From the NCBI GenBank assembly GCA_964548675.1, contig CAZJSI010000007.1:1-34465 (forward strand): a stretch of DNA of 34,465 nucleotides, in the 5' to 3' direction. Positions 148-34,270 of the stretch are shown here, one piece after another. Numbering within the stretch: position 1 is the first letter of the stretch; each line of letters begins with the position of its first letter. The stretch comes from an uncultured Eubacterium sp. GTDB lineage: Bacteria; Bacillota; Clostridia; Lachnospirales; Lachnospiraceae. The notes beneath the pieces are model-generated. The model had not been told where the DNA came from. It did not search any database and saw only the letters and a list, made by a program, of their open reading frames with translations. The position numbers and the translations under genes were made by a program.

Positions 148-1653
148 ATGAGAAATGTATTGGAATGGCTGGAGAGGACTGCAGAACGCCTGCCGGACAA
201 GTACGCATTTCTGGATTTGGAAAATAAAATTACTTTTCGGGAAATTATGCAAAGAGCGAAGTCAATTGGCATGGCGCTTGCGGAGGGAAAATGGAACCGG
301 GCGCCGATTCCGGTATTTTCCGGCCGAAATGTCTTTACTCCTTCTGCATTCTGGGGAGTAGTGTACAGCGGACAGGCCTATGTGCCGATTGATTCAAAAC
401 TGCCCGGGGCAAGAATACGGAAAATCCTTTCCCAATTGGAGCCTTCTGTTATTCTGGCGGATGAGGCAAGTTATGAAACGGTACGGGAATTTGCAGGGGA
501 TACACCGATTTTAGTTGTAGAAGAACTGTGCCGGACAAAAGCAGATTCGGTTCTGCTGGATAAAATCCGCTCGGAGATGGTGGAAACTGATCCTTTATAT
601 ATTATCTATACATCGGGTTCTACAGGAAATCCAAAAGGAGTTATAACATCTCATCATGCTCTGATGTGTTATATCGACGCATATTCAAAAGTAATGAAAA
701 TTGAAGAGGAGGACCGGCTGGGAAATCAGTCTCCACTGGATTACATTGCGGCGATCCGCGATATGTACCTGCCTTTGAGACACGGATGTTCCACATTGAT
801 CATTCCGAAAGAATATTTTATGGAACCGAATATGCTGTTTGGATGCATGAATGATTATCAGGTGACGTCCGTTGGCTGGAGCGTGTCTGCTTTTACGATC
901 GCTTTATCTCTCGGGGCCTTTGAAGAAACGGGGCTGACATCATTAAGAAAAATCTGCTTTTCCGGTTCTGTGATGCCGGCGAAGTGCCTTAGGGTATGGC
1001 AGGAGAATCTGCCGGACGCCAGATTTGTGAATCAGTATGGCCCGACAGAGGCGACGGCTTCCTGTACTTATTATGTGGTAGAGCATCTGGTGTCAGAGGA
1101 TGAGGTGCTTCCGATTGGAAAGGCGTATGAGAATTATCGGGTTTTCATTTTGAATGGGCAGAATGAGGAGGCCGAAGACGGAGAGCTGGGGGAGATATGT
1201 GTCAGCGGTCCATGCCTTGCACTGGGGTATTACCATGATGCAGAGCGGACAGGGGCTGCATTCATGCAGCATCCGGGCAATGACCGCTACAGGGAATTGA
1301 TATACCGTACCGGAGATATTGGACTGCGCAGAGCAGACGGTATCCTGGAATTTCATGGGCGCAAGGACCGTCAGATCAAGCATATGGGGCATCGCGTGGA
1401 ACTGGATGAAATAGAATATGCGGCAAATCAGCTCCCGGAGGTGAAGGAGAGCTGCTGTGTTTACAGGAAGGACAAAGAGAAATTATATTTGTTTTATCAG
1501 GGAGACATTGCCAAGCGGGAACTGCTCCTGAAACTGAGGGAAATATTGCCGGGATTTATGGTCCCAAGAAAAGTGCAGCAGATGGACAAACTTCCGAAGC
1601 TGCCCAATGGAAAAATTGATATGAATAAGATAGAAGAGGAGACAAGAAAATGA
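148..1653 (+). CDS. Stand-alone amino-acid adenylation (A-domain, DltA-like) enzyme with atypical substrate pocket
   Basis: Core motifs YIIYTSGSTGNPKG, NQYGPTE, GEICVSG..LALGY, YRTGD, GRKDRQIKHMGHRVELDEIE, PNGKID; good RBS. Confidence 0.93.
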   Translation: MRNVLEWLERTAERLPDKYAFLDLENKITFREIMQRAKSIGMALAEGKWNRAPIPVFSGRNVFTPSAFWGVVYSGQAYVPIDSKLPGARIRKILSQLEPSVILADEASYETVREFAGDTPILVVEELCRTKADSVLLDKIRSEMVETDPLYIIYTSGSTGNPKGVITSHHALMCYIDAYSKVMKIEEEDRLGNQSPLDYIAAIRDMYLPLRHGCSTLIIPKEYFMEPNMLFGCMNDYQVTSVGWSVSAFTIALSLGAFEETGLTSLRKICFSGSVMPAKCLRVWQENLPDARFVNQYGPTEATASCTYYVVEHLVSEDEVLPIGKAYENYRVFILNGQNEEAEDGELGEICVSGPCLALGYYHDAERTGAAFMQHPGNDRYRELIYRTGDIGLRRADGILEFHGRKDRQIKHMGHRVELDEIEYAANQLPEVKESCCVYRKDKEKLYLFYQGDIAKRELLLKLREILPGFMVPRKVQQMDKLPKLPNGKIDMNKIEEETRK

Positions 1654-1880
1654 GAGAAACAATTTTAGATATTTTAACAGAATTAAGACCGGATGTGGAT
1701 TTTGAAAATGAGACGGCGTTGATCAAAAACGGGATTTTAGAATCTTTTGACATTGTGTCACTGGTAGCTGAATTGTCGGATGAATTTGATATTACGATCC
1801 GTCCGAAAGATCTGACCCCGGAAAATTTTAATTCATTGGATGCGATTTGCTCATTGGTAGAAGTGTTGACAGAGGAGTAG
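1650..1880 (+). CDS. Acyl/aminoacyl carrier protein (DltC-like)
   Basis: 76 aa and acidic; GILESFDI phosphopantetheine-site-like motif; PENFNS C-terminal motif; ATGA overlap with the upstream gene. Confidence 0.92.
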   Translation: MRETILDILTELRPDVDFENETALIKNGILESFDIVSLVAELSDEFDITIRPKDLTPENFNSLDAICSLVEVLTEE

Positions 1881-1883
1881 AAA

Positions 1884-3074
1884 ATGTGGAACAGTGAAAT
1901 GACGAAACCGTGTACACCCGCTTATATATTTGATGTGGATGTATTTGCCGATCGCTGCAGGCGTGTGAAATCGGCGGTGGGAGATATCCCTTTTACTTAT
2001 TCCATAAAGGCAAATCCCTTTCTGCTGAAGTGTATCCCGGAGGAGATTGCCCATGTGGAGGTATGCAGCCCGGGTGAATTGAGCATATGCATGGCGCTGA
2101 AGGTTTCGCCGGAATCTATCATATATTCAGGCGTTACCAAGGAAATGCGGGATGTAGAGCAGGCAGTTGCCTATGATGTAGGTATCCTGACGGCAGAAAG
2201 CCTGTTGCATGTCGAATTGGAGAACCAGGCTGTCAGAAAATCCGGAAAAGAGAAAAAACGGGTCATTTTGCGGCTCACCAGCGGCAACCAGTTCGGTATG
2301 TCTGCGAGTGATATCAAAACGGTCATTGCGGACAGAGACCGGTATGAAGGGCTGGAATTTTATGGAATTCATTATTATTCCGGAACTCAGAAAAAGATGC
2401 GCCAGATCAAAAAGGATATGCAGCGGCTTGAGACATTGCTGCAGGAACTGAAAGAGGAATTTGGATTTGAAGCTCAGCTGGTAGAGTATGGGCCGGGACT
2501 CGGCGTAGACTATTTTGAACCGCCTTATGAGGAGACGGATATGCAGATGCTCCGGGAAGTTATGCCGGTAATTATGGAATTTGCAGACAAATATCCACTG
2601 GGCATTGAGATGGGGCGCTTTTTGGCTGCTCCCTGCGGAAGCTACCTGACTCAGATCAAGGACAGCAAGGAGAATAGCGATACCAATTATCTCATATGTG
2701 ACGGAGGTATTCATCATTTGAAATACCATGGCCAGACTATGGCCATGCAGGTACCGCCGATCAAAGTGTATAAAGAATATGGGAGAGAATCGGAAATACC
2801 CGTACAGAGCGATACCCATATCCCGTATATGATCTGCGGGAGCCTTTGTACGGTTGCAGATGTACTGGTGCGCGAGGCAGAACTCCCACCGGTTGAAATT
2901 GGTGATCATCTGCTTTTTGGACGCTGCGGGGCATATTCCGTGACTGAGGGAACGGCGTTGTTCCTCTCCAGAACGATGCCGCAGATTTATTTATACAAAA
3001 GAGAAAAAGGATACTTGCTGGAACGAGATTTTATCGAGTCAGCTTCGCTGAATATGACAGGTGACAGAATATGA
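1884..3074 (+). CDS. Fold-type III PLP-dependent decarboxylase (DAP decarboxylase/BtrK-like)
   Basis: YSIKANP (PLP Lys), EVCSPGEL, HYYSGTQ, GPGLG, EMGRFL, GSLCTVAD (Cys), GAYS. Confidence 0.88.
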   Translation: MWNSEMTKPCTPAYIFDVDVFADRCRRVKSAVGDIPFTYSIKANPFLLKCIPEEIAHVEVCSPGELSICMALKVSPESIIYSGVTKEMRDVEQAVAYDVGILTAESLLHVELENQAVRKSGKEKKRVILRLTSGNQFGMSASDIKTVIADRDRYEGLEFYGIHYYSGTQKKMRQIKKDMQRLETLLQELKEEFGFEAQLVEYGPGLGVDYFEPPYEETDMQMLREVMPVIMEFADKYPLGIEMGRFLAAPCGSYLTQIKDSKENSDTNYLICDGGIHHLKYHGQTMAMQVPPIKVYKEYGRESEIPVQSDTHIPYMICGSLCTVADVLVREAELPPVEIGDHLLFGRCGAYSVTEGTALFLSRTMPQIYLYKREKGYLLERDFIESASLNMTGDRI

Positions 3075-4675
3075 GTTTGATTTCTTTGCAGTTCGCCATA
3101 TTTGTGTTGGCGGCGGTTGTAGTATATTATTTGTTCCCGAGGAAATATCGTTGGGTTGTGCTTCTTGCGGCCAGTTATGCATATTATCTGATCATATGTA
3201 ATAAATATATCATTTATATGATGGTTACGACGGTAAGCGCATATCTGGGAGCGCGGATCATTGAATCGGGATATCAGAAACAGTCTGCTGTCCTGAAAGC
3301 CCATAAAGGGGAGTGGAGCAGGGAAGAAAGAAAAGCGTATAAGAAAAAAGTGACAGGAAAATGCCGGGGGACGATGCTTGTAGTTTTAGTGCTGAACTTC
3401 GGCATTTTGGGGATTTTGAAATATTCCGGTTTCGCATCAGATGTGGCGTCTTCGATAGCAGGCCTGTTCGGCGCTCACGTGAAGTTCCCCGAGTTAGGTT
3501 TTCTGCTCCCGCTGGGAATTTCATTCTACACGTTCCAGACGATGGGATATGTCATTGATGTATACCAGGAGAAAGTGGCGGCGGAGAAGAATATTGCACG
3601 ATTTGCACTGTTCGTCTCTTTCTTCCCGCAGATCATACAGGGACCGATCGCTATGTATGACGACCTGGCGCATCAGTTGTACGAACCTCATGATTTTCGG
3701 TTTCGGAATCTGAAAAACGGAGCCGCCCTGATCCTGTGGGGGATTTTTAAGAAGATGGTGATCGCAGACCGGGCAGTCGCAGTGATAAACCTTGTTACTG
3801 CTGATTCCAATGCATTTTCCGGAACCTTTATATTGTTTGCGGCCCTTCTGTACGCCCTCCAGTTATATGCAGATTTTTCCGGCGGTATTGATATTGTAAG
3901 AGGTATCGGTGAAATCTTTGGTATTCGGATGGCGGAAAACTTCAGGCGGCCATATTTTTCAAAATCCCTGACAGAATATTGGCATCGCTGGCATATGACC
4001 CTGGGTAACTGGGTGAGAAATTATGTGTTTTACCCTCTGTCTATTTCAAAGAAATTTTTGAACATGGGCAAGTGGATGCAGAAACATTGTGGAAAACATC
4101 TGGCAAAAGTCGTTCCCACCAGCCTGGCATCTCTGATCACTTTCCTGATCATTGGCATCTGGCATGGGGCCAACGGAAAGTATGTGGCGTTTGGCCTGTG
4201 GAATGGCGTTGTAATTATGCTGATTGAGATATGTCGTCCTTTTAACGAAAAAGTTGGGGATGCGCTGCATGTCAATCGGGAAGGAAAGCTATATCAGCTT
4301 GCCGCCATTATATGGACGTTTATTTTAGTCCTGGTTGGATATTATTTTGATATCGCGCAGAATTTTAAAGATGCTGTGAATATGCTTGTGCGCTCTGTGA
4401 CGGACCTGCATATTTCAGATGTCGGTCAGGTGGCGTGCCTGAAACCGGCGGGGCTTGACAAATATGATTATATGATGATCCTTCTGGGGGGGATAATTAT
4501 TTTTATCATTTCTGTGATACAGGAGCGGAGCGGTCAGAGTATCAGGGAAATGCTCTGGCAGAGAAAACAAAAAGTACAGTGGGCGGCGTTCCTGATAGGA
4601 ATGGTCGTGGTTTTGATCTTCGGATATTATGGCCCGCATATGACGCCGGCAGACTTTGTTTATATGCAATTCTAA
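3071..4675 (+). CDS. MBOAT family membrane O-acyltransferase (AlgI/PatA/DltB-like)
   Basis: LPLGISFYTFQ, FFPQIIQGPI, YADFSG, ENFRRPY..S..EYWHRWHMTL, GIWHG (catalytic His), C-terminal FVYMQF. Confidence 0.95.
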   Translation: MSLISLQFAIFVLAAVVVYYLFPRKYRWVVLLAASYAYYLIICNKYIIYMMVTTVSAYLGARIIESGYQKQSAVLKAHKGEWSREERKAYKKKVTGKCRGTMLVVLVLNFGILGILKYSGFASDVASSIAGLFGAHVKFPELGFLLPLGISFYTFQTMGYVIDVYQEKVAAEKNIARFALFVSFFPQIIQGPIAMYDDLAHQLYEPHDFRFRNLKNGAALILWGIFKKMVIADRAVAVINLVTADSNAFSGTFILFAALLYALQLYADFSGGIDIVRGIGEIFGIRMAENFRRPYFSKSLTEYWHRWHMTLGNWVRNYVFYPLSISKKFLNMGKWMQKHCGKHLAKVVPTSLASLITFLIIGIWHGANGKYVAFGLWNGVVIMLIEICRPFNEKVGDALHVNREGKLYQLAAIIWTFILVLVGYYFDIAQNFKDAVNMLVRSVTDLHISDVGQVACLKPAGLDKYDYMMILLGGIIIFIISVIQERSGQSIREMLWQRKQKVQWAAFLIGMVVVLIFGYYGPHMTPADFVYMQF

Positions 4676-4693
4676 GAGAAAGGAGAGTGCAGA

Positions 4694-5794
4694 ATGAAAA
4701 AGAAAGCAGTGAAATTGACGATTTTTTTGATAATTGCATTTGTCATTTTTCTCGGATTGTCAGAGGCGTCCAAGGATATCAGCCGTACGTGTATATCCAG
4801 TATAAAAGGATTTTATACGGAGCCGGAGGATTCTCTGGATGTGGTTCTGGTCGGAGCCAGTGAAGTATATGCGGGATATTCCCCGACAGAAGCATGGAAA
4901 GAGCACGGCTATACTTCCTACGATTTAGCCAGCGCCGGTGTGCCGGGCAACTTGTATAAATCCATGCTGAAAGAAGTGATGAGGAGCCAGAAACCGAAAG
5001 TGGTTGTGTTTGAAATAAATGGTTTTCTTTATAATGAGAACTATTTTAAGGACAGCGGGAGCCTGCATAAATATATTGATAATATGAAGATATCCCAAAA
5101 CTGGATAGATACGATACGGGAAGTTATTCCGGAAGAAGAACAGGGATATTATTTTTCGCCGCTATCTACTTATCATGATAATTGGAAGAATCCCAAGGGA
5201 GCGATAAAAAGTGTTGTCACTAAAGTGCTGATCAGGCTGCATGGCCGTTCCAATCTGAAAGGGCTGGCAACTTTTTCGCAGTATAGGAACAGTAAGGACA
5301 AGCTGACTGTAGACAGCGGGATTATGCTGACGGAACAGGGAAAGGAATATCTGGAAGAACTGTGCCGGACCTGTCAGGAAGAGGGAGTGGAAAATGTTCT
5401 GTTTGTACGTTTCCCGCATTTGAGGGAAGTGGAAAATAAGGATGTTTTTCCAAAAGTAGAAGAAATCGTAAAATCTTATGGTTATGATTTCCTTAATGTG
5501 ACGGATTATGAGAGCCTCGGACTGGATAAAGACCATGATTTTTATAATAAAGATCATATGAATTATTATGGAATGAGGAAATTTACGACATATTTTGGAG
5601 AATATCTGACCCAAAATTATGATCTGCCCGTTCAGCATGATGAGGCGGTGGAAGAAGAGTGGGCTGCCTGCACGGAAAAGGCAGACGAGATCTTTCGCCA
5701 GTGTGAAGAAGACTTTGAGAAGGGACAGACCAGACATTATATGGAGACGTCCTGTTACTTTAAACCCGAATTGAGAAAAAGTAAAGTTAAATAA
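4694..5794 (+). CDS. Membrane-anchored SGNH-like acyltransferase partner (DltD/AlgJ/PatB-like)
   Basis: N-terminal basic + hydrophobic anchor; VLVGASE (GxS nucleophile block); DFYNKDHMN (DxxH-like, with N for D); directly follows the MBOAT. Confidence 0.75.
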   Translation: MKKKAVKLTIFLIIAFVIFLGLSEASKDISRTCISSIKGFYTEPEDSLDVVLVGASEVYAGYSPTEAWKEHGYTSYDLASAGVPGNLYKSMLKEVMRSQKPKVVVFEINGFLYNENYFKDSGSLHKYIDNMKISQNWIDTIREVIPEEEQGYYFSPLSTYHDNWKNPKGAIKSVVTKVLIRLHGRSNLKGLATFSQYRNSKDKLTVDSGIMLTEQGKEYLEELCRTCQEEGVENVLFVRFPHLREVENKDVFPKVEEIVKSYGYDFLNVTDYESLGLDKDHDFYNKDHMNYYGMRKFTTYFGEYLTQNYDLPVQHDEAVEEEWAACTEKADEIFRQCEEDFEKGQTRHYMETSCYFKPELRKSKVK

Positions 5795-5846: not shown

Positions 5847-5874
5847 TTGCTCCGTACTTTTTTTGTGTTACAAT
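5847..5874 (+). promoter_or_regulatory. Putative sigma-A promoter for the sugar transferase
   Basis: TTGCTC at 5847 and extended -10 TGtTACAAT at 5866-5874. Confidence 0.4.
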
Positions 5875-5923: not shown

Positions 5924-7339
5924 ATGTATAAAAAAGCACATCAATCATGGGTAAAACATCTTGATTTTACAATTTTGGATTTGGCGTTATTAGGATTATC
6001 ATACTATATATCCTGTTTGCTGCGTTTTCGGATGCATATTCCTGCCGCTCAGGTTCAGATGCTGATACAATTGGGAATTGTCCTGATATTGATCTATTTC
6101 TGCGCAGCTCTATTTGGCCTGGCCTATAAAAATATTTTGAGAAGAAACAGATGGGCGGAATTGCGGTCGGTTTTGATTCAGGCAATTCTGACATTTTCTG
6201 TTTTTACCATATTTCTTTATATTACCAAACAGGGCGATCTGTTTTCACGAACGATCTATTTAGTGACAGGAATTATCAGCGCTGTTTTCATATACTGCGA
6301 GCGCATTGTCTGGAAACGGATTCTGAGGCTTCACTTCCTTAATAATGAAAATCTGCCTCACATGCTGATCGTTGCGAATGATGATACGGCGGCAGCATGT
6401 GCCCGGGCGATAAATAAACGCCGGTATAATGATTTCTTTGTAACGGGTCTCATTGTGGTTAATAAGGATATGAAGGGACAGACGATAGAAGGGTGTCCTG
6501 TCGTCTGCAATGCAGGCGAGATCAAGTCGTATGTCCTGTCAGAAGTTGTTGATGAGATTTTCCTCAGTATACGTGATGGAAAAAAACAGAACCAGCTAAT
6601 AGAATATTTTTTGGAAGCGGGTATTACCGTTCATATAAGCTTGATTTCGAATACGAAGGATCTGCCCAACAAATTTGTGGAAAAGATCGGCGGTTATATG
6701 GTGCTGACTACGAGTAACCGCATGGCCTCCGGCGGGCAGTTGTTTATGAAAAGACTGATGGATATTGTCGGAAGCCTGATCGGCCTGGCGATAACGGGGG
6801 TGCTGTTTGTATATCTGGCGCCACAGATTTATCGTGCCGATCCGGGACCGATTTTTTTTTCACAGATTCGGGTAGGCAAAAACGGGCGTCAGTTTAAAAT
6901 ATATAAATTCCGTTCTATGTATCTGGATGCGGAAAAGCGTAAAGCGGAATTGATGGCAGAGAATGAAATGAACGGCCTGATGTTTAAAATGAAAAACGAT
7001 CCCCGGATCCTGCCGGGAATAGGGAATGTGATGCGTGATTGGAGTCTCGATGAATTTCCTCAGTTCCTCAATATTTTAAAAGGAGATATGAGCCTTGTAG
7101 GTACACGTCCTCCCACAGTGGACGAGTTCAGAAAATATGATATCCATCATAAAATGAGGCTCAGTTTTAAGCCGGGGCTCACCGGTTTGTGGCAGGTGAG
7201 CGGGCGGAACAGCATAACGGATTTTAAAGAAGTTGTGGCTCTGGACAACCGGTATATTAAGCAATGGTCCATTGGCCTGGATGTTAAAATATTATTGAAA
7301 ACGATAAAAGTGGTATTGCATAGAGATGGGGCAATGTGA
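5924..7339 (+). CDS. Polyprenyl-phosphate sugar-1-phosphate (priming) transferase, WcaJ/CpsE family
   Basis: N-terminal TM segments; KRLMDI, GPIFFSQIRVGKNG..F.IYKFRSM, DPR, LDEFPQFLNILKGDMSLVGTRP, KPGLTGLWQVSGR. Confidence 0.93.
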   Translation: MYKKAHQSWVKHLDFTILDLALLGLSYYISCLLRFRMHIPAAQVQMLIQLGIVLILIYFCAALFGLAYKNILRRNRWAELRSVLIQAILTFSVFTIFLYITKQGDLFSRTIYLVTGIISAVFIYCERIVWKRILRLHFLNNENLPHMLIVANDDTAAACARAINKRRYNDFFVTGLIVVNKDMKGQTIEGCPVVCNAGEIKSYVLSEVVDEIFLSIRDGKKQNQLIEYFLEAGITVHISLISNTKDLPNKFVEKIGGYMVLTTSNRMASGGQLFMKRLMDIVGSLIGLAITGVLFVYLAPQIYRADPGPIFFSQIRVGKNGRQFKIYKFRSMYLDAEKRKAELMAENEMNGLMFKMKNDPRILPGIGNVMRDWSLDEFPQFLNILKGDMSLVGTRPPTVDEFRKYDIHHKMRLSFKPGLTGLWQVSGRNSITDFKEVVALDNRYIKQWSIGLDVKILLKTIKVVLHRDGAM

Positions 7340-7360
7340 TCAATGTTTTTGATAATACAG

Positions 7361-7389
7361 TAGACATATTTTTTTGATTATGATAGAAT
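7361..7389 (+). promoter_or_regulatory. Sigma-A promoter for the ABC/LicD/TarI operon
   Basis: TAGACA-N17-TAGAAT with TG extension at 7381-7382. Confidence 0.6.
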
Positions 7390-7467
7390 ATGTAGTCGCA
7401 AAGAATTAACTGACAAGCCGAAAAATACAGGTTGAGGTATATAAAAGTAGAGGAATCAGGGGAAACA

Positions 7468-8262
7468 ATGAAAAAATTTTTTAGAGATGTAAAGAAATAT
7501 TTTAAGTATGTGATCTTTGCCGGCCAGACTGAACTGAAAGCGGAGGTGGCAAATTCTTATTTGAACTGGTTGTGGTGGATCATAGAGCCGATCTGCTTTA
7601 TGTTTATTTATTCATTTGTGTTTGGCTTTTTATTTGGGGCAAAGGAAGCACATTTTAATATTTTTGTATATATTGGTATCACGATGTGGGATTTTTTCAA
7701 CCGGATGTTGACTTCCAGCGTACAGGTGGTCAGAAACAACAAAGCGATTGTGTCAAAGGTATATATTCCAAAATATATGCTGATCTTCATTAAAATGTAT
7801 GTAAACGCATTTAAAATGTTTGTGGCATTTATTTTGATGTTCATTATGATGGCCGTTACCAGGGTTCCCTTTACACTGCAGATTTTGTGGCTTATACCGA
7901 TTGTATTGACATTGTTCTGCATCACTTTTGCAATATGTTCTATTTTGCTGCACTTCGGTGTGTTTGTGGACGACCTGGCGAATGTGGTCAAGATCTTTCT
8001 GAGAATGATGTTTTACCTGACCGGTGTATTTTACAATTTGAGCGATAAAGTGGGAAGCGTCCTGGGGGAGAAATGGGCTATATTAATAGGACACCTGAAC
8101 CCGATGGCAAGCCTCATTACGGATATGAGGCTTGCGCTGCTTAACGGAACAATGCCGGATATAAAATTCACTGCAGTATGGTTTGTATTAGGTATTTTGG
8201 TTTCCATGCTGGGAATCCGGTTGATCTATAAAAATGAAAACAGTTATGTGAAGGTGATCTGA
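7468..8262 (+). CDS. Glycopolymer ABC exporter permease (TagG/Wzm)
   Basis: SYLNWLWWIIEP, multiple TM helices, LNPMA motif; ATG 7468 after CAGGGG preferred over the ORF-track TTG at 7432. Confidence 0.92.
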   Translation: MKKFFRDVKKYFKYVIFAGQTELKAEVANSYLNWLWWIIEPICFMFIYSFVFGFLFGAKEAHFNIFVYIGITMWDFFNRMLTSSVQVVRNNKAIVSKVYIPKYMLIFIKMYVNAFKMFVAFILMFIMMAVTRVPFTLQILWLIPIVLTLFCITFAICSILLHFGVFVDDLANVVKIFLRMMFYLTGVFYNLSDKVGSVLGEKWAILIGHLNPMASLITDMRLALLNGTMPDIKFTAVWFVLGILVSMLGIRLIYKNENSYVKVI

Positions 8263-8990
8263 TGGGTGAAATAGCGATTGAAGTAAAGGATTTGTGTATA
8301 AATTACAGGACATTGGGTTCTTATTCCATTAAAAAGATGCTGCTCCAGGGGAAAAAAAGCCAGAAAGAAGATTTTCAGGCAGTAAAACATGTGAGTTTTT
8401 CTTTGGAAAAAGGGGAAATACTAGGCATTATAGGGAAAAACGGAAGCGGAAAATCTACGATGTTAAACTCGATTGCCGGCATATTTGCCCCGAATGAGGG
8501 AAGTATTGACCTGCACGGCCACAGTGTGTCGCTGCTGTCCATCGGAGTCGGCTTCAAGAAAAATATATCCGGCCGGGAAAATATTCTGCTGTCGGGAATG
8601 CTGCTCGGATTTCCGAAGAACTATATTAAAGAAAAAATGGATGAGATTATTGAATTCTCTGAGCTGGGGGATTTTATAGACAAGCCGGTGAGGACATATT
8701 CCAGCGGTATGTATTCCAAATTGGCTTTTTCCGTTACGGCTATACTGGAGACGGAAATTATGCTGATTGATGAAGTGCTTAGTGTGGGTGACGAGCATTT
8801 CCGGAAAAAGAGCCTGGCGAAGATGAAATCATTGATCAGTGATAAAAACAGGACAGTTGTAATTGTGTCCCACAGCATTACGACTTTAAAGGAACTGTGC
8901 ACACAGGTCATGTGGATGCATGAGGGTGAGATCAAAATGCTGGGCAATCCGGATGAAGTCCTGAAAAAATACAAAGAATTTATGAAGTAG
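8262..8990 (+). CDS. Glycopolymer ABC exporter ATPase (TagH/Wzt), no C-terminal carbohydrate-binding domain
   Basis: Walker A GKNGSGKS, signature YSSGM, Walker B IMLIDE, VSH; only 242 aa. Confidence 0.94.
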   Translation: MGEIAIEVKDLCINYRTLGSYSIKKMLLQGKKSQKEDFQAVKHVSFSLEKGEILGIIGKNGSGKSTMLNSIAGIFAPNEGSIDLHGHSVSLLSIGVGFKKNISGRENILLSGMLLGFPKNYIKEKMDEIIEFSELGDFIDKPVRTYSSGMYSKLAFSVTAILETEIMLIDEVLSVGDEHFRKKSLAKMKSLISDKNRTVVIVSHSITTLKELCTQVMWMHEGEIKMLGNPDEVLKKYKEFMK

Positions 8991-8998
8991 GTGTCAAT

Positions 8999-9922
8999 AT
9001 GAAAGGGAGTCTATCAACATATTCTCTTTTTAGAAAAATGATCATAGAAAATAAAGACATCTATATGCTTTCACAGGAGGATGTGGAGGCTGTACAGAGA
9101 GTACTCCTGGGAATGATGGACGACATTCACAGGGTTTGTGAGATGAATGGACTAACATATGTCCTGAGCGGCGGCTGTGCGCTTGGCACGGTTCGTCATG
9201 GCGGTTTTATTCCCTGGGATGACGACATTGATATTTGTATGCCCAGAAAAGATTATGACAGATTCCGGGATTATCTCCTGGAGGCGTATCCGGACACATA
9301 TTATGTGCAGGAAATTCGAAGCTGTGAGAATTATGACCTGAACTTTATGAAGGTAAGGCTGAAAAACAGTGTCTTTTGTGAATTTCTTGATCCCGAACCG
9401 GAAAAGTCGGGGATCTTTATCGATATATTTCCCGTGGAAAATGTCAGCGATGGTATTTTGGCAGGAAACCTGCAATGGCTTATGTCAGACGGGATGCAGT
9501 TTATCTGTTCCTGCATAAGAATACGTAAGAAACGGGAGCGGCTTTTAGCGATGTCAGGCGGTTTGGTGGAAGCGAAACGTATGATTCGTGTAAAGTCTGC
9601 GTTAGCGTTACCGTTCAGCCTGATACCTTTTCGCAAATGGCTGCTGTGGACGGAAAAAATTTTAATGAGAAATGGAAATGATCATACAAAAAAAGTGTCG
9701 ATACCGACAGGCGGGCGGCATTTTAAGGGAGAAACATATCCCAGAGAGTGGCTGTTTCCGCCGCGATTGACTCAATTTGAAGATAGAAAATATTATACAA
9801 TGGCACATGTGGAAAAATATTTGACACAAATGTATGGGGATTATATGACGCTGCCTCCTGTTGAACAGAGGGAGAGACATGCATTGTTGGCATTTTCATT
9901 GCCGGAAGGAGATTGTAAATGA
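8999..9922 (+). CDS. LicD family CDP-alcohol-phosphate transferase
   Basis: GGCALGTVRHGGFIPWDDDIDI, IFIDIFP, YLTQMYGDYMTLPP. Confidence 0.92.
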   Translation: MKGSLSTYSLFRKMIIENKDIYMLSQEDVEAVQRVLLGMMDDIHRVCEMNGLTYVLSGGCALGTVRHGGFIPWDDDIDICMPRKDYDRFRDYLLEAYPDTYYVQEIRSCENYDLNFMKVRLKNSVFCEFLDPEPEKSGIFIDIFPVENVSDGILAGNLQWLMSDGMQFICSCIRIRKKRERLLAMSGGLVEAKRMIRVKSALALPFSLIPFRKWLLWTEKILMRNGNDHTKKVSIPTGGRHFKGETYPREWLFPPRLTQFEDRKYYTMAHVEKYLTQMYGDYMTLPPVEQRERHALLAFSLPEGDCK

Positions 9923-10974
9923 AAGATCCGTATTTGGAAGAAGATTTAAAAAATGTAGCAGCCAGGATGAAGGAACACAGGGAATTGTATGGAAGCAGCA
10001 TATTGGTCACCGGAGCAACAGGTTTGGTGGGATCCCAGATCGTAAAAGCATTGCTGATGATGAATCGCATGTATCAGGCTGATATTGTAGTGTACGCTTT
10101 CGTGAGGGACCGCGGGAAAGCAGAGAAGTTATATGATGACTTTAGAGACGATGCACTCGTATATGTAACAGGAGATTTACAGCGGGATTTGGAAATAGAA
10201 CAAAGTATTGATTATATAGTTCATGGAGCCAGCCCGACCGCATCTAAGTTTTTTGTGGAACATCCGGTAGAAACACTGGGGATCGCAATTGACGGAACCC
10301 GGAATATTTTGGAATTGGCCAGAAGGAAAGGATGCAGAGGAGTAGTATACCTGTCATCCATGGAAGCTTTTGGCATTACGGATCCCGCCCTGGAGACGGT
10401 AAAGGAAGAGGATTTGGGATATATTGATATCCATCATGTGCGCAGTTCCTATTCGGAAGGCAAGCGTGTATGTGAGTTATTATGTTCCTGCTATGCGGCC
10501 GAATATGGCGTGCCGGTGAAAATTGCCCGTCTGGCCCAAACATTTGGCGCGGGGATACCATATGAAGAGAATCGTGTATTTGCGCAGTTTGCCAAGTGCG
10601 CGATAAATAGAACTGATATTGTATTGCATACGAAAGGGTTGTCAGTGGGGAATTATTGTTATACCAGGGATGTTGTGGCAGCTCTTCTTTTGCTGTTGGT
10701 CAAGGGAGAAAACGGGGAGGCATATACTGTTGCCAATGAGGAGTCCCATATTACGATCGGCAATATGGCGGCGCTTGTGGCTGAGCGGATTGCGAATAAT
10801 GAGATTCGGGTGGTATATGATATCCCGGAAGATGCGTTGCAATATGGATACGCACCGGATGTAAAGATGCATTTGAATTCCCGGAAACTGCAGGCGTTGG
10901 GATGGAAACCGGAAGTGGGATTAGAAGAATCTTATCATAGAATGATCGCCAGTATGCTGGCTGCAAGAGAGTAA
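9919..10974 (+). CDS. NAD-dependent epimerase/dehydratase (extended SDR), probable CDP-pentulose reductase
   Basis: GATGLVGS, HGASP, YLSSME, YSEGK (YxxxK); lies near tarI/ispD. The specific activity is inference. Confidence 0.85.
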   Translation: MKDPYLEEDLKNVAARMKEHRELYGSSILVTGATGLVGSQIVKALLMMNRMYQADIVVYAFVRDRGKAEKLYDDFRDDALVYVTGDLQRDLEIEQSIDYIVHGASPTASKFFVEHPVETLGIAIDGTRNILELARRKGCRGVVYLSSMEAFGITDPALETVKEEDLGYIDIHHVRSSYSEGKRVCELLCSCYAAEYGVPVKIARLAQTFGAGIPYEENRVFAQFAKCAINRTDIVLHTKGLSVGNYCYTRDVVAALLLLLVKGENGEAYTVANEESHITIGNMAALVAERIANNEIRVVYDIPEDALQYGYAPDVKMHLNSRKLQALGWKPEVGLEESYHRMIASMLAARE

Positions 10975-10976
10975 AG

Positions 10977-11786
10977 ATGAAACATTTGTTGACATTAGAA
11001 GAGATGCATCAGAGAGAATTGGTAATGATGAGATTATTCCATGAGTTTTGTCAGGAACATCATCTGCGTTATTATATGTGCGGCGGTACGCTGCTTGGCG
11101 CTGTCCGGCATCAGGGTTTTATTCCCTGGGATGATGATGTGGATCTGCTGATGCCAAGGCCGGATTATGAAAAACTGCAGAAATTGGTCGTCAGCCAGCC
11201 ATATATGCCAAGATATGAATTTCATTCTTATTCACTGGGAAATCTGCGGGAAAATTTTACGAAGCTGGTAGATCTGCACACGCTGGTAGATAAGGATTTT
11301 ACGTTTGATGAGTATGATCAGAATTTATGGATCGATATTTTCCCGATGGACGGCCTGCCGGAAGATGATAAGGAGATTGAGAAAATCTACAAAAAGGTCA
11401 AGCGGGCGCGAAGAATTTTGAAATTTTTGAAAGCAAAGCCCGGTACAGGCTCTTCACGGGTAAAAGCTGTTGTAAAACCGCTGCTGAAACCGATTGTGGG
11501 CCTGGTCTGGTCGAAAGACGGATTGCTTCGGCATATAGATCAGATCGCGAAGAACTACGACTTTGAATCATCGGAACATGTGGGAGGCATAGTATATGGC
11601 TATGGCCCGCAGGAAAAAATGGTGAGACGGGATTATGTGAAACCGATAGAGATGCGGTTTGAAGATATGACAGCGATAGCGCCCGGATGTTATGATGAAT
11701 ACCTGCGCGCATTATTTGATGATTATATGGAACTGCCGCCGGAGGATAAACGGCAGGTGCACTTTATGAAAATATATGGATGGTAG
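10977..11786 (+). CDS. LicD family CDP-alcohol-phosphate transferase (second paralog)
   Basis: GGTLLGAVRHQGFIPWDDDVDL, WIDIFPMD, YL..LF.DYMELPP. Confidence 0.93.
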   Translation: MKHLLTLEEMHQRELVMMRLFHEFCQEHHLRYYMCGGTLLGAVRHQGFIPWDDDVDLLMPRPDYEKLQKLVVSQPYMPRYEFHSYSLGNLRENFTKLVDLHTLVDKDFTFDEYDQNLWIDIFPMDGLPEDDKEIEKIYKKVKRARRILKFLKAKPGTGSSRVKAVVKPLLKPIVGLVWSKDGLLRHIDQIAKNYDFESSEHVGGIVYGYGPQEKMVRRDYVKPIEMRFEDMTAIAPGCYDEYLRALFDDYMELPPEDKRQVHFMKIYGW

Positions 11787-11825
11787 GACAAGCAGGATAA
11801 TAGCGCCGTTGAGATGGAGGAAATT

Positions 11826-12563
11826 ATGGTACATGCAATGTTATTTGCCGGTGGAACCGGAACAAGAATGAGATCAGGAAATATCCCGAAACAGTTTATA
11901 GAAGTGGATGGAATACCGATTATAGTAAGAACATTAAGACAGTTTGAAGAGCATCCTTTTGTGGATGATATTGTGATTTCCTGTATTGCTTCGGGAATCG
12001 ATCATCTGAAAGGGTTGATCAAACAATACAATATTCAGAAGGTAAAATCTATTGTACCGGGAGGTGCAAGTGGTTTTGAATCTATCCATAATGGCGTGGT
12101 AGAGGTGGCTAAGGACGCAAAGGACACAGATGTTATTTTGATCTGTGACGGTGTAAGGCCCGTTATATCAGAGCAGTTAATTTCGGAATGTATCGAATTG
12201 ACTAAAAAATATGAGACCGCTGTTCCGGTCGTGAAAAGTATTGACTCGGTTCTGGTCAGCGAGGATGGATGCACCTGCGAACAGAATATGCCGAGGGAAA
12301 AGATGTATATTACACAGGCCCCGCAGGGATATACGATGCGAAAAATATTGTGGGCACACGACGAAGCGGTCAAGAGAGGGATTGTGAATCCGACATCATC
12401 AGCAGATCTCATGATCGCATTAGGAGAGAAGATTCGCATTTTCCTGGGAGAGCGCGATAATATCAAAGTGACAACGCCGGAGGATTTATATACACTTCGT
12501 TCACATTACTATTATGAGCATTATAAAAAGTTCGCAAGAGAAGAGATGCGGTATGAGGTGTAA
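11826..12563 (+). CDS. TarI/IspD family cytidylyltransferase (CDP-alditol synthesis)
   Basis: FAGGTGTRM..PKQF, DGVRP, QAPQ, NIKVTTPEDL; RBS GGAGG at 11816-11820 favours ATG 11826. Confidence 0.9.
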   Translation: MVHAMLFAGGTGTRMRSGNIPKQFIEVDGIPIIVRTLRQFEEHPFVDDIVISCIASGIDHLKGLIKQYNIQKVKSIVPGGASGFESIHNGVVEVAKDAKDTDVILICDGVRPVISEQLISECIELTKKYETAVPVVKSIDSVLVSEDGCTCEQNMPREKMYITQAPQGYTMRKILWAHDEAVKRGIVNPTSSADLMIALGEKIRIFLGERDNIKVTTPEDLYTLRSHYYYEHYKKFAREEMRYEV

Positions 12564-12614
12564 AAGCGCTTTTTTAAAAGACGATAGAGAGGAAGTATAA
12601 AAGGAGTCCGTAAT

Positions 12615-15329
12615 ATGAACGTATCGATTATTTTGTTTCTGTCTGAACATCAGGGAGAAAATGAAAAAACGATTGATTGTTTGAAAAAAGAACTTTTAAA
12701 CAGAGATGGCGCCGGACAAATACTGGTATATGGCGGTGGAAACAATCAGGCTGATCTCAAAGCGGTATCAGACGGTCGGAATGCAGAAGTTATTTTAGAA
12801 GGAGACGGGAGACCTGCGGCCTGCGAAGCGTATCAGGATGCAAAAAATAAAATAACAGGCGATTATGTAACTGTACTGCACGGAGGGGATACATGGTCTG
12901 CCGGAACACTTGATGCCGTAGATCATAGTGTCCGTTCATATGTTGATAACAGCATTATTATGACTCAAAAAATTATGCCTGACGGATCAGTTGGAGCGTT
13001 TTCCACTCCCGCAAATTCTGATAAGGAAACAGATATCCAGAATTTAATGACGGAATTCAGATGTTATCCGTTCTACATGGGCGGGACTTTTGTCAAGTCG
13101 GATTACCTGAAAAAGTTTGATTTTGTCCCGGAACTGGGTATGGAAGCGGAAAGGGCATTTCTGTTGGATGTATGTCAAAAAGAAATGTCTGTACTATTCT
13201 TAAATAATTTTCAGTATTATAGTACAAAGGAATGTGAGGGGGATGATACATTTTTCGAGGGGATATATGAGAAAGAATGGTACATCCAGTCATTTACTGA
13301 TTTTTGGATTCCGTATTTGCGGAAACTAAAGGAAAGCGCCGGCGGTATCCCTGAATTTATCCAATACCACCTGATGTTTACCATAAAAAGCCGGCTTATC
13401 AGTAATATGAATAATAAGAATAAGCACGTGATAGAAGAAGGACAGGAGAAAGAATGTCTGAAATTGATCGGTGATGTCCTGCAATTCATAAATGATGATA
13501 TTATGTTTGATTATCGCAGATTACCGGAAAGCAGGGTGGGAGATTCTATAAAATGGCTGTATGGCATTTTGAAATATGGAAAAGATTTCCGGTTTGAAAA
13601 GAAATATCTGTCGGGCTGCACATATTATGCTGCGGGAAATGTGGTATTTAATAAAATTGCCAGTCTGAAAACAAATATATTGTTTATGAATTATGTAGAT
13701 GGGAACCTGGAAGTGGATGGGACAACTCACCCGATTTTATTTTCCATGGCTGACACTATTTATTTCAGCCTTTCGGGAAAAAGGTATGAGCTGCAGTATA
13801 ATGAACGCTATGCCCTGGAAAAGATATTCGGCGTGAGTGTGTATAAACGACATTCTTTTCATGTGACCATACCGATGGACCAGACCCGGGAAGAGGTACT
13901 GTTTTGCTATGCAAAGATCGGTAACGAGATTCTCAGGATCCCGTTTTCCTATCAGTCGCATTTCAGCAGATTGAGCAATGCTTTTCGAAACAGTTATTGG
14001 TGTTTTGGCGATAAAGTGCACTATATGGCAGTGAATTTTAATGGAGGAATAGAGTTCCGGATCGTTCATGGCAGGATGCAGAGGGAGAGAGAGCGAAAGC
14101 TCTCAAGAGAAATGCTCGTCAGCAAAAAGATGAAGGTCTGGAAACAGCTTGCAGTCCGGAAGGCTTATTTTTTGATGAAACCCCTGATGAAGCGCAGACC
14201 GATCTGGTTATATATTGACAAGATATATAAGGCCGGGGATTCCTCGGAATATTTATATCGGTACGCAAGCGCTCAGAATGATAATATAAAACATTATTAT
14301 CTGGTGGACAAACATGCGGCAGATTATGCAAGGTTAAAGAAGGACGGTTATAAACCTTTAGTGAGAAAAAGCATCAAACATCGTCTTGTATTTTTGATGG
14401 CAGATATGGTTGTAATCTCAAATTCTACGGTATTTGCATTTAATAATTATGGTATGGATAATTCCGCTTACATCCGTGACCTGGTGAATTTCCATGTCTG
14501 TTGTGTCCAGCATGGTATGTCAGTACAGAAAATTGCGGTTGCCCAGAATCGGCTGCGGGATAACATCAGGCTGTATTTTTGCGCTTCAAAGTATGAGATC
14601 AGGAATTTATTAAAGCCGATATATGACTATGACGGATATAACGCATTGCAGTTGACGGGCGTACCGCGCTATGACGGGTTGGTAAATAACGATCAGAAAC
14701 AGATCATGATCAGTCCTACCTGGAGAATGCAGGCGGCGGTTCCGGTGCGGACAAATGAGGGTGAACAGAGAGACTATAACCCGTTATTTAAGGAAAGTTC
14801 GTATTATAAGGTATTTAACTCTCTGATCAATGATCCGAGATTGATCGAAGCGGCGAAGAAATATGGTTATAAGATCAAATATGTGCTGCATCCGATCGTC
14901 AGTGCGCAGGTGGATGATTTCGACAAAAATGAATATGTGGATGTGATACCTGCCGTGGGGGATATGAGTTATGAGAAAATGTTCTGTGAGTCCAGCCTGA
15001 TGGTCACGGACTTTTCCGGAATTCAGTTTGACTTTGCCTACATGAGAAAACCGCTGGTGTATCTCCATCATAAAGATATTCCCCAGCATTATGAAGAGGG
15101 AACATTTTTCTATGATACGATGGCGTTCGGTGAGATCTGCCATGATAATGATGAACTGATAGAACTTTTGTGTGAATATATGGCAAATGGTTGTCAGATG
15201 AAAGAAGAGTATGTAAAACGGGCGGATGATTTCTTCTATTATCGTGACAGAAATAACTGCGAACGTATTTATAATACGATGCGGGAGTATCAGGACAGGT
15301 ATATTTTCCCTACAGAAGAAAAAATTTAA
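12615..15329 (+). CDS. TagF/TarL-like CDP-alditol phosphotransferase with degenerate N-terminal GT-A-like domain
   Basis: C-terminal VQHG, TGVPRYD, SPTWR, LHP, VTDFSGIQFDFAYMRKP; N-terminus has GT2-like remnants. Confidence 0.88.
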   Translation: MNVSIILFLSEHQGENEKTIDCLKKELLNRDGAGQILVYGGGNNQADLKAVSDGRNAEVILEGDGRPAACEAYQDAKNKITGDYVTVLHGGDTWSAGTLDAVDHSVRSYVDNSIIMTQKIMPDGSVGAFSTPANSDKETDIQNLMTEFRCYPFYMGGTFVKSDYLKKFDFVPELGMEAERAFLLDVCQKEMSVLFLNNFQYYSTKECEGDDTFFEGIYEKEWYIQSFTDFWIPYLRKLKESAGGIPEFIQYHLMFTIKSRLISNMNNKNKHVIEEGQEKECLKLIGDVLQFINDDIMFDYRRLPESRVGDSIKWLYGILKYGKDFRFEKKYLSGCTYYAAGNVVFNKIASLKTNILFMNYVDGNLEVDGTTHPILFSMADTIYFSLSGKRYELQYNERYALEKIFGVSVYKRHSFHVTIPMDQTREEVLFCYAKIGNEILRIPFSYQSHFSRLSNAFRNSYWCFGDKVHYMAVNFNGGIEFRIVHGRMQRERERKLSREMLVSKKMKVWKQLAVRKAYFLMKPLMKRRPIWLYIDKIYKAGDSSEYLYRYASAQNDNIKHYYLVDKHAADYARLKKDGYKPLVRKSIKHRLVFLMADMVVISNSTVFAFNNYGMDNSAYIRDLVNFHVCCVQHGMSVQKIAVAQNRLRDNIRLYFCASKYEIRNLLKPIYDYDGYNALQLTGVPRYDGLVNNDQKQIMISPTWRMQAAVPVRTNEGEQRDYNPLFKESSYYKVFNSLINDPRLIEAAKKYGYKIKYVLHPIVSAQVDDFDKNEYVDVIPAVGDMSYEKMFCESSLMVTDFSGIQFDFAYMRKPLVYLHHKDIPQHYEEGTFFYDTMAFGEICHDNDELIELLCEYMANGCQMKEEYVKRADDFFYYRDRNNCERIYNTMREYQDRYIFPTEEKI

Positions 15330-32410: not shown

Positions 32411-34270
<1,860 letters not shown>

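Follow-up and report, generated by a model that had tools for sequence, protein, structure and literature searches.

A five-gene cassette from an uncultured Eubacterium sp. as a candidate pathway for loading, decarboxylation on a carrier and surface relay of an acidic amino acid

The window analysed here, the whole 34,465-nt stretch forming the first 34 kb of contig CAZJSI010000007.1 of an uncultured Eubacterium sp., begins with five genes that together look like a surface-acylation cassette with a built-in amino acid decarboxylase. After only 147 nt of contig there follow, all on the + strand, an adenylation enzyme of 501 aa, hereafter the loader (148..1653; PF00501 match, E 1e–61), a carrier protein of 76 aa resembling DltC and type II peptidyl carrier proteins, with its phosphopantetheine site at Ser32 (1650..1880), a fold-III pyridoxal-phosphate decarboxylase of 396 aa (1884..3074; PF02784 and PF00278), a membrane-bound O-acyltransferase (MBOAT) of 534 aa (3071..4675; PF03062), and ORF5, a membrane-anchored SGNH-fold protein of 366 aa that is DltD-like by fold (4694..5794). 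The initial annotation had described five coupled genes, and indeed all open reading frames (ORFs) are intact; stop and start codons overlap as ATGA at 1650 and at 3071, and the remaining intergenic gaps are 3 and 18 nt. We consider it probable that this cassette loads an acidic amino acid, decarboxylates it on the carrier and relays the product through the MBOAT and the SGNH protein to a surface glycan.

In the proposed pathway the loader would activate an acidic amino acid via its side-chain carboxyl and charge it onto the cassette's own carrier, where the decarboxylase would remove the free alpha-carboxyl. The resulting omega-amino-acyl group, of 4-aminobutyrate (GABA) or beta-alanine type, would be passed via the terminal tyrosine of the MBOAT and then the SGNH serine, to end as a cationic ester on a cell-surface glycan. 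This chemistry had been suggested from the sequence of the window, and it gains from the kinship of the decarboxylase with BtrK, its missing LysA residues, the separate lysA of congeners, the basic residue 239 and lost Asp235 of the loader pocket, and a sister cassette with a racemase; the precedent, the type of export machinery and the acceptor had to be corrected, as detailed below.

The genes of the cassette keep company across genomes. Among the best 80 of 584 loci in the GTDB set, loader, carrier and decarboxylase occur together in 78/80 and the MBOAT in 74/80, unlike in carrier-less MBOAT-SGNH pathways, and all five genes are present in 69/80. In a sample of 300 genomes of the host family, about one per genus, the decarboxylase family was found in 61 genera at E 1e–60; 60 regions were taken from these (G201 was left out) and two distant ones, L160 and L163, were dropped, and the remaining 58 hold the cassette head in 55, the MBOAT in 47 and all five genes in 45. 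Since all five occur together so often in both sets, the grouping is not due to chance. When five genomes with MBOAT-less loci were examined, four of them were found to encode a cassette-type MBOAT elsewhere. Related adenylation enzymes are present in 108/300 host-family genera, and the closest named homologues, among the matches listed, are mostly from Lachnospiraceae and Oscillospiraceae; cultured carriers of the IAR type (see below) among these matches are Ruminococcus albus, Agathobacter ruminis and Roseburia porci. A phylum-wide sample gave 10/400 matches at E 1e–50, four of them distant, and no fewer than 7055 relatives of the decarboxylase, distant ones included, are found at E 1e–20. 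As a unit, the cassette is kept in many gut and rumen Clostridia. Gene order varies among cassettes and the congeners of the window mostly carry another subtype, so the cassette looks exchangeable.

The case for an acidic substrate comes from the loader pocket. A fold search with the structure model of the loader (predicted local distance difference test, pLDDT, 92.9) returned generic adenylation domains and no substrate clue. The pocket register was set by alignment to Bacillus cereus DltA, with GrsA numbering. The code is I-A-R-G-C-S-Q-A-S-K: Ile200 (position 235) aligns with Asp197 and Arg204 (position 239) with Met201 of B. cereus DltA, and Asp198 occupies position 233. In the standard code Asp235 is described as the anchor of the alpha-amino group (PMC8788816). 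The first three positions are fixed in 80/80 members of this 'IAR' clade, including Ile at 235 in 80/80. Of 63 cassette loaders in the host-family sample, 57 have a DVK code, 5 IAR and 1 DAK, and a basic residue at 239 is common to the three types. Loaders from decarboxylase loci have Lys or Arg at 239 in 146/148 cases and Asp233 in 145/148. Conversely, 146 of the 149 loaders with Asp233 have an intact decarboxylase at the locus, as against only 1 of the 38 cassette loaders without Asp233, a contrast to be read with the facts that the Asp233 set was mostly gathered through decarboxylase searches, that DAK loci are short and that the clades are few. The pocket co-varies with its partner gene, and the pairing of a Lys239 sister clade with an aspartate-racemase-family gene (below) points to acidic substrates. 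Residue 239 would bind the second acid group, and Asp233 would hold the amine of a substrate turned with its side-chain carboxyl toward ATP. Arg239 may be common in side-chain-activating domains. The literature on specificity codes of such domains gave little, apart from a reported aminoadipate code whose third residue is Arg (PMC12283262). HitB, IdnL1 and CmiS6 are distant matches only to the loader, and VinN is absent among the PDB matches listed for it.

Given this pathway, L-Glu converted to 4-aminobutyryl is our tentative first choice for the window's own copy, at somewhat below an even chance; Asp converted to beta-alanyl is a real possibility, and another substrate, for example aminoadipate, is rather unlikely. 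L-Glu is preferred because the IAR pocket, while retaining Asp233 and Arg239, lacks Asp235 and at 278, 299, 330 and 331 has residues smaller than those of the majority DVK type; the loss and the smaller residues would suit a longer acid. The DVK type may make beta-alanyl. In FastTree trees with thinned rows (roughly a quarter to a sixth of the rows kept for IAR, half to a quarter for DVK and half for DAK) the IAR loaders form a single clade (support 98–99) and the decarboxylases of IAR cassettes nest within those of DVK cassettes (support 99), so the window's type looks derived.

The decarboxylase has features expected of an enzyme that works on a carrier-bound substrate: its catalytic Lys and Cys are intact, it is closest to BtrK, and its gene lies with those of a carrier and a loader. 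BtrK is its best solved relative by sequence (E 1e–29), and in a profile search scores 208 bits, followed by the next entry at 183 and the first plain diaminopimelate (DAP) decarboxylase at 162. Lys42, His163, Glu242, Arg245, Cys322 and Tyr351 are kept in the window, the first five being invariant in 91/91 cassette decarboxylases, and the catalytic Cys is followed by Thr in 90/91, as in BtrK, while 9/12 other fold-III enzymes have Cys-Glu. Among characterised enzymes, CtaF is described as inactive on free Asp and active on the carrier-bound form (PMC7183216), and VinO (PMC11284099), BtrK and FlvO (PMC11350588) are likewise described as acting on carrier-bound Asp or Glu. A structure prediction of the decarboxylase dimer with the carrier scored 0.45 against 0.00 for the best control, with contact agreement of at least 82% among runs and partner pLDDT of at least 85. 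This would lend weak support, as the 0.45 mark is reached by 116/157 solved and 2/215 mismatched pairs, and the scores at the mark and up to 0.60 comprise 18 solved pairs and both mismatched ones. The carrier itself scores 20.0 bits with the PP-binding model, just below the cut-off of 20.8, and 38.5 with NF003464 (cut-off 68); its Ser32 is invariant in 58/58 homologues, its profile matches in the PDB are aminoacyl and D-alanyl carriers, and a phosphopantetheinyl transferase is encoded in the same genome. At L169:7032-8217 (G623) the decarboxylase is split into two frames, a broken copy or an assembly error.

On the membrane side, the MBOAT has its catalytic His365 invariant (95/95) and ends in the acyl-shuttle hexapeptide FVYMQF with Tyr531, an architecture of PatA/AlgI type. 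Of the full-length cassette MBOATs, 145/145 terminate in Y-x-x-F/Y and 91/145 in strict FxYxxF. The tyrosine of this motif is described as the residue that takes the acyl group on to the serine of the SGNH partner, in pathways that, outside Dlt, use acyl-CoA as donor and no carrier protein (PMC12148441). ORF5 has no Pfam or NCBIfam match and no significant PDB match by sequence or profile; 9/56 members of its family match Lipase_GDSL_2. It has one N-terminal hydrophobic segment (residues 5–23), and all 56 homologues share its Ser56 and His288. The label SGNH/DltD-like is upheld at the level of predicted fold, by Foldseek and VIA only: with a model of pLDDT 95.3 the three top Foldseek hits are DltD (E 7e–5 to 1.4e–4, TM ∼0.36), and VIA gives Z 12.0 and a root-mean-square deviation of 5.3 over 244 aligned residues, tied with other SGNH esterases. 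The elements of an MBOAT-SGNH shuttle are therefore present, namely the MBOAT His, the C-terminal FxYxxF and an SGNH partner with Ser and His. Elsewhere, two different MBOAT-SGNH pairs flank the cassettes of L010, L015–L017, L019, L021–L023, L027, L028, L044 and L164, two SGNH genes are found in each of L005, L006 and L020, and at L123:7566-9099 (G175) the MBOAT is split in two, again a broken copy or an assembly error.

A search from the loader side revealed sister cassettes that combine the same carrier-MBOAT tail with other heads. In the DAK type (code DAKCAGLGMK, with Lys239 and Tyr233) the loader has a neighbour of the aspartate racemase family in 23/30 loci; a decarboxylase is missing within 1.5 kb in 30/30, and 27/30 of the genomes have no cassette decarboxylase match in the host-family search. 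These racemases exceed the TIGR00035 cut-off, and by sequence the DAK cassettes are candidates for D-aspartyl-type surface acylation. They comprise L195:1629-6809, L198:7501-12706 and L203–L232, with racemase, loader, carrier and MBOAT, and the SGNH gene where the locus extends; a gene for a transglutaminase-domain surface protein precedes the cassette in L195 and L198. At L118:9288-12443 a frame of 1051 aa fuses a decarboxylase to Rib and transglutaminase domains next to a DAK-type loader, and it has a relative of 1046 aa (P0161). In the VML type (VMLFMGMDIK, without Asp235 and without a basic residue 239), seen at L199:3052-9666 and L200:8109-14542, a sodium:solute symporter gene lies between loader and carrier, and this cassette would import a non-amino-acid cargo.

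A link to beta-alanine metabolism was seen in G173 (L146:9338-16379, G173:C12), where the last genes of a panG-panB-panC-coaBC operon are those for a DVK loader and its decarboxylase. No panD was found in that genome, and in the genome of the window panD stands at this very place of the pan operon, which gives a hint of beta-alanine for the DVK type. The same operon without panD occurs in G297, which has a DVK cassette, and in G032, which has a DAK cassette (L188 and L189). A general role of the cassette as a replacement for PanD was considered and rejected: panD is found in 16/61 cassette genomes versus 78/300 overall, and panC without panD in 4/80 genomes, 2 of them with the cassette.

A number of observations speak against the pathway or parts of it. 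The correspondence between pocket and partner rests on few clades and not on independent events; G022 has an IAR loader and no decarboxylase was found in its genome, and the DAK loader of L118 adjoins a decarboxylase. The SGNH motif of ORF5 is N-K-D-H instead of D-x-x-H. The decarboxylases of IAR and DVK cassettes can be told apart by just 4 diagnostic positions, so that they show no clear counterpart to a switch of substrate from Asp to Glu. The genome to which the window belongs, 76% complete as assembled, yielded no lysA. The racemases of DAK cassettes also exceed the cysteate-racemase cut-off, the pan-operon linkage is a single case with the head located elsewhere in the sister genome G751, and cassette genomes are no poorer in panD than the sample overall. 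Lastly, glycan genes are rarely adjacent. Teichoic-type genes are near 6/80 and 0/58 cassettes (within ∼9–10 kb) and at least two glycan genes near 14/80 and 6/58, most cassettes having none at this distance; the comparison set of overlapping windows of the genome under study gives 4/180, and the cassette counts are inflated by the fact that the queries were drawn from the cassette loci themselves. A general link of the cassette to teichoic or capsule loci is not supported by such counts. The survey that had been proposed therefore confirmed the co-occurrence of the five genes and not their association with polysaccharide loci.

The same kind of ester would be formed, with no on-carrier step, if the decarboxylase acted first on free Glu or Asp and the loader then charged GABA or beta-alanine. 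Loss of Asp235 fits a substrate without an alpha-amino group, and the position in the pan operon of G173, whose carrier gene is on another contig, would be simplest with free beta-alanine. However, Arg or Lys at 239 in nearly all loaders from decarboxylase loci indicates that the molecule being loaded carries a further acidic group, the characterised relatives are described as requiring a carrier (PMC7183216, PMC11284099), and the predicted contact between decarboxylase and carrier, weak as it is, goes in the same direction. We regard decarboxylation of the free amino acid as unlikely and keep to the on-carrier order.

The acceptor is more difficult to assign. Downstream of the cassette, genes at 5924..15329 (+ strand), recognised by Pfam and NCBIfam family scans, encode a WbaP-type transferase, Wzm, Wzt, LicD, an epimerase/reductase, a second LicD, an IspD/TarI-like protein and a TagF-domain protein, which would make a polyol-phosphate polymer; the description of the locus as teichoic-acid-like is fair. 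As acceptor pathway it is a candidate only, since such adjacency is rare and a possible separate promoter lies before wbaP. This putative extended –10 promoter (5847..5874, + strand; TTGCTC, 16 nt, TG-T-TACAAT) was read from the sequence and is not among the calls of a promoter/terminator consensus scan, which over the window stayed near shuffle level. For the window's cassette the chances that the adjacent polymer is the acceptor look about even. The chemistry could also end on a lipid, lipoteichoic acid, peptidoglycan or a secreted small molecule, as most cassettes lie apart from glycan loci and LtaS-like sulfatase-fold genes adjoin two loci (L111, L193). Such an outcome is distinctly unlikely in our view: characterised MBOAT-SGNH pairs are described as acylating envelope polymers (PMC12148441), and teichoic-type neighbours adjoin IAR cassettes in the window as well as in L043/L045 (LicD, TarI, epimerase-TagF and Wzm/Wzt) and in L073/L075/L077 (TagF, TagO and LCP genes).

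A glycan destination in general is supported by heads without an MBOAT that sit inside glycan clusters. At L119:4431-13731 such a head lies beside genes for an LpxD-like acyl-carrier-dependent N-acyltransferase and a DegT amino-sugar aminotransferase, at L133:6473-18622 within a nonulosonic-acid gene cluster, and at L142:6301-12963 with pyruvyl-transferase and Stealth genes. Unannotated genes of 347 aa (L133) and 411 aa (L142), mutually unlike, stand directly before the carrier. In the window, between 12615 and 19952, the TagF-domain protein is without a family match over its first 520 aa, and the glycan locus is followed by genes for an L,D-transpeptidase (YkuD) and for a protein with a phage-tail-lysozyme domain. 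The window also has spoIIE, yabP/Q and cotS, which identify the host as a spore-forming clostridium, and a 565-aa ORF antisense to ftsH (32453-34150, – strand) that is probably a shadow frame.

Public sources label relatives of the decarboxylase 'diaminopimelate decarboxylase', and no other lysA was found in the genome. These points would fit a reading in which the loader charges meso-DAP or a similar diamino-diacid, whose decarboxylation on the carrier would yield a lysyl ester, or one in which the enzyme is a stand-in for lysA feeding a Dlt-like lysylation. The substrate-binding residues of LysA include Cys-Glu and the motif R-P-x-x-Y. Both are absent from the window's enzyme: Thr follows the catalytic Cys, as noted, and R-P-x-x-Y is missing from cassette decarboxylases, Tyr281 replacing the Arg; the lysA equivalog gives 142 bits, under the cut-off of 298. 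While 30/30 congeners encode a PF02784 protein, the 6/6 that were examined have the cassette decarboxylase plus a separate lysA-like gene, with Cys-Glu and R-P-x-x-Y and a score of ∼279 bits against the same cut-off, and the cassette enzymes group apart from the lysA-like rows (FastTree support 98). A second PF02784 match in the window's genome was considered as lysA and set aside, being YggS-like by its sequence. Judged on these residues and scores, the decarboxylase is likely not a lysA enzyme, and a DAP-derived lysyl ester is very unlikely.

A divergent D-alanylation operon with the decarboxylase as a passenger is barely credible: DltA is the top match for the pocket region, ORF5 has a DltD-like fold and no other Dlt genes were found in the genome, but loader, carrier and decarboxylase stay together almost without exception, Ile and Arg replace Asp197 and Met201 of B. 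cereus DltA, and the DltA (297 bits versus a cut-off of 476, and 282 versus 560), DltB (155 versus 375) and DltC equivalog cut-offs are missed. The likeness to Dlt lies in a stand-alone loader and carrier that supply a relay of MBOAT, shuttle tyrosine and SGNH protein (DltA/DltC/DltB/DltX/DltD; PMC12148441). The differences are the extra decarboxylase, the pocket without Asp235 and with Arg239, and the shuttle motif, which is fused to the MBOAT and in Dlt belongs to a separate DltX; no DltX-like motif was found in ORFs of at least 20 aa in the 147 nt before the first gene, no match to the Pfam DltD model anywhere in the genome, and the window's MBOAT is the only one found there. Of the Dlt-like architecture first suggested, the loader, the carrier and the DltD-like fold stand, and the export half is of PatA type and not DltB with DltX. 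By its sequences, the cassette is not a Dlt operon; it is a Dlt-type donor side joined to a PatA-type membrane side.

Other known systems resemble parts of the cassette. VinN/VinL/VinO of vicenistatin and FlvN/FlvL/FlvO of fluvirucin biosynthesis consist of an adenylation enzyme, a stand-alone carrier and a pyridoxal-phosphate decarboxylase, and decarboxylases of VinO/FlvO type are described as acting on (methyl)aspartate once the thioester has been formed (PMC11284099, PMC11350588). These systems make the starter of a polyketide, whereas the cassette has no polyketide synthase and has the MBOAT and SGNH genes downstream. In BtrJ/BtrI/BtrK (butirosin) and CtaD/CtaE/CtaF (closthioamide, Ruminiclostridium cellulolyticum) a fold-III decarboxylase works on a gamma-Glu- or beta-Asp-carrier, but the loaders are ATP-grasp enzymes and the products antibiotics. 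BtrK, which had been offered as the precedent, is the best solved relative but a distant one; the Vin and Flv systems and CtaF are closer precedents. The PatA/PatB and AlgI types share the C-terminal FxYxxF on the MBOAT, the catalytic His and an SGNH partner; they use acyl-CoA and no carrier (PMC12148441), while the cassette encodes a carrier and its loading enzymes. Finally, of the NCBIfam models TIGR03099, from the exosortase-associated ligase/decarboxylase pair TIGR03098/TIGR03099, fits the decarboxylase best, but its score is far under the cut-off (166 versus 478 bits) and there is no exosortase in the window; no paper on this pair was found in the literature search. Our literature searches, at the level of listings, gave no description of the gene combination or of beta-alanyl or aminobutyryl wall polymers, and the word 'alanine' is absent from the passages covered of a 2025 review of gut surface polysaccharides (PMC12413058). 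In the portions of the literature cited here, MBOAT-SGNH envelope acylation with a cargo delivered by a carrier is described for D-alanine alone.

New in this analysis are a loader pocket of apparently derived IAR type, sister cassettes with racemase and symporter heads, and the weakness of the general link to polymer loci. A broader picture, which we put forward as speculative and somewhat doubtful, would be that gut and rumen Clostridia hold a set of MBOAT cassettes, all fed by a carrier, whose heads are interchangeable and each put a different acyl group on the cell surface: D-aspartyl-type for DAK, beta-alanyl for DVK, GABA for IAR and an imported non-amino acid for VML, in which the window's copy would esterify a teichoic-acid-like polymer with GABA and make it zwitterionic. 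The cassette joins a natural-product starter module to an MBOAT-SGNH export relay. If the proposed pathway is true, many abundant anaerobes hold a route to positive surface charge other than Dlt, and this could affect their resistance to cationic peptides, phage binding and immune recognition.

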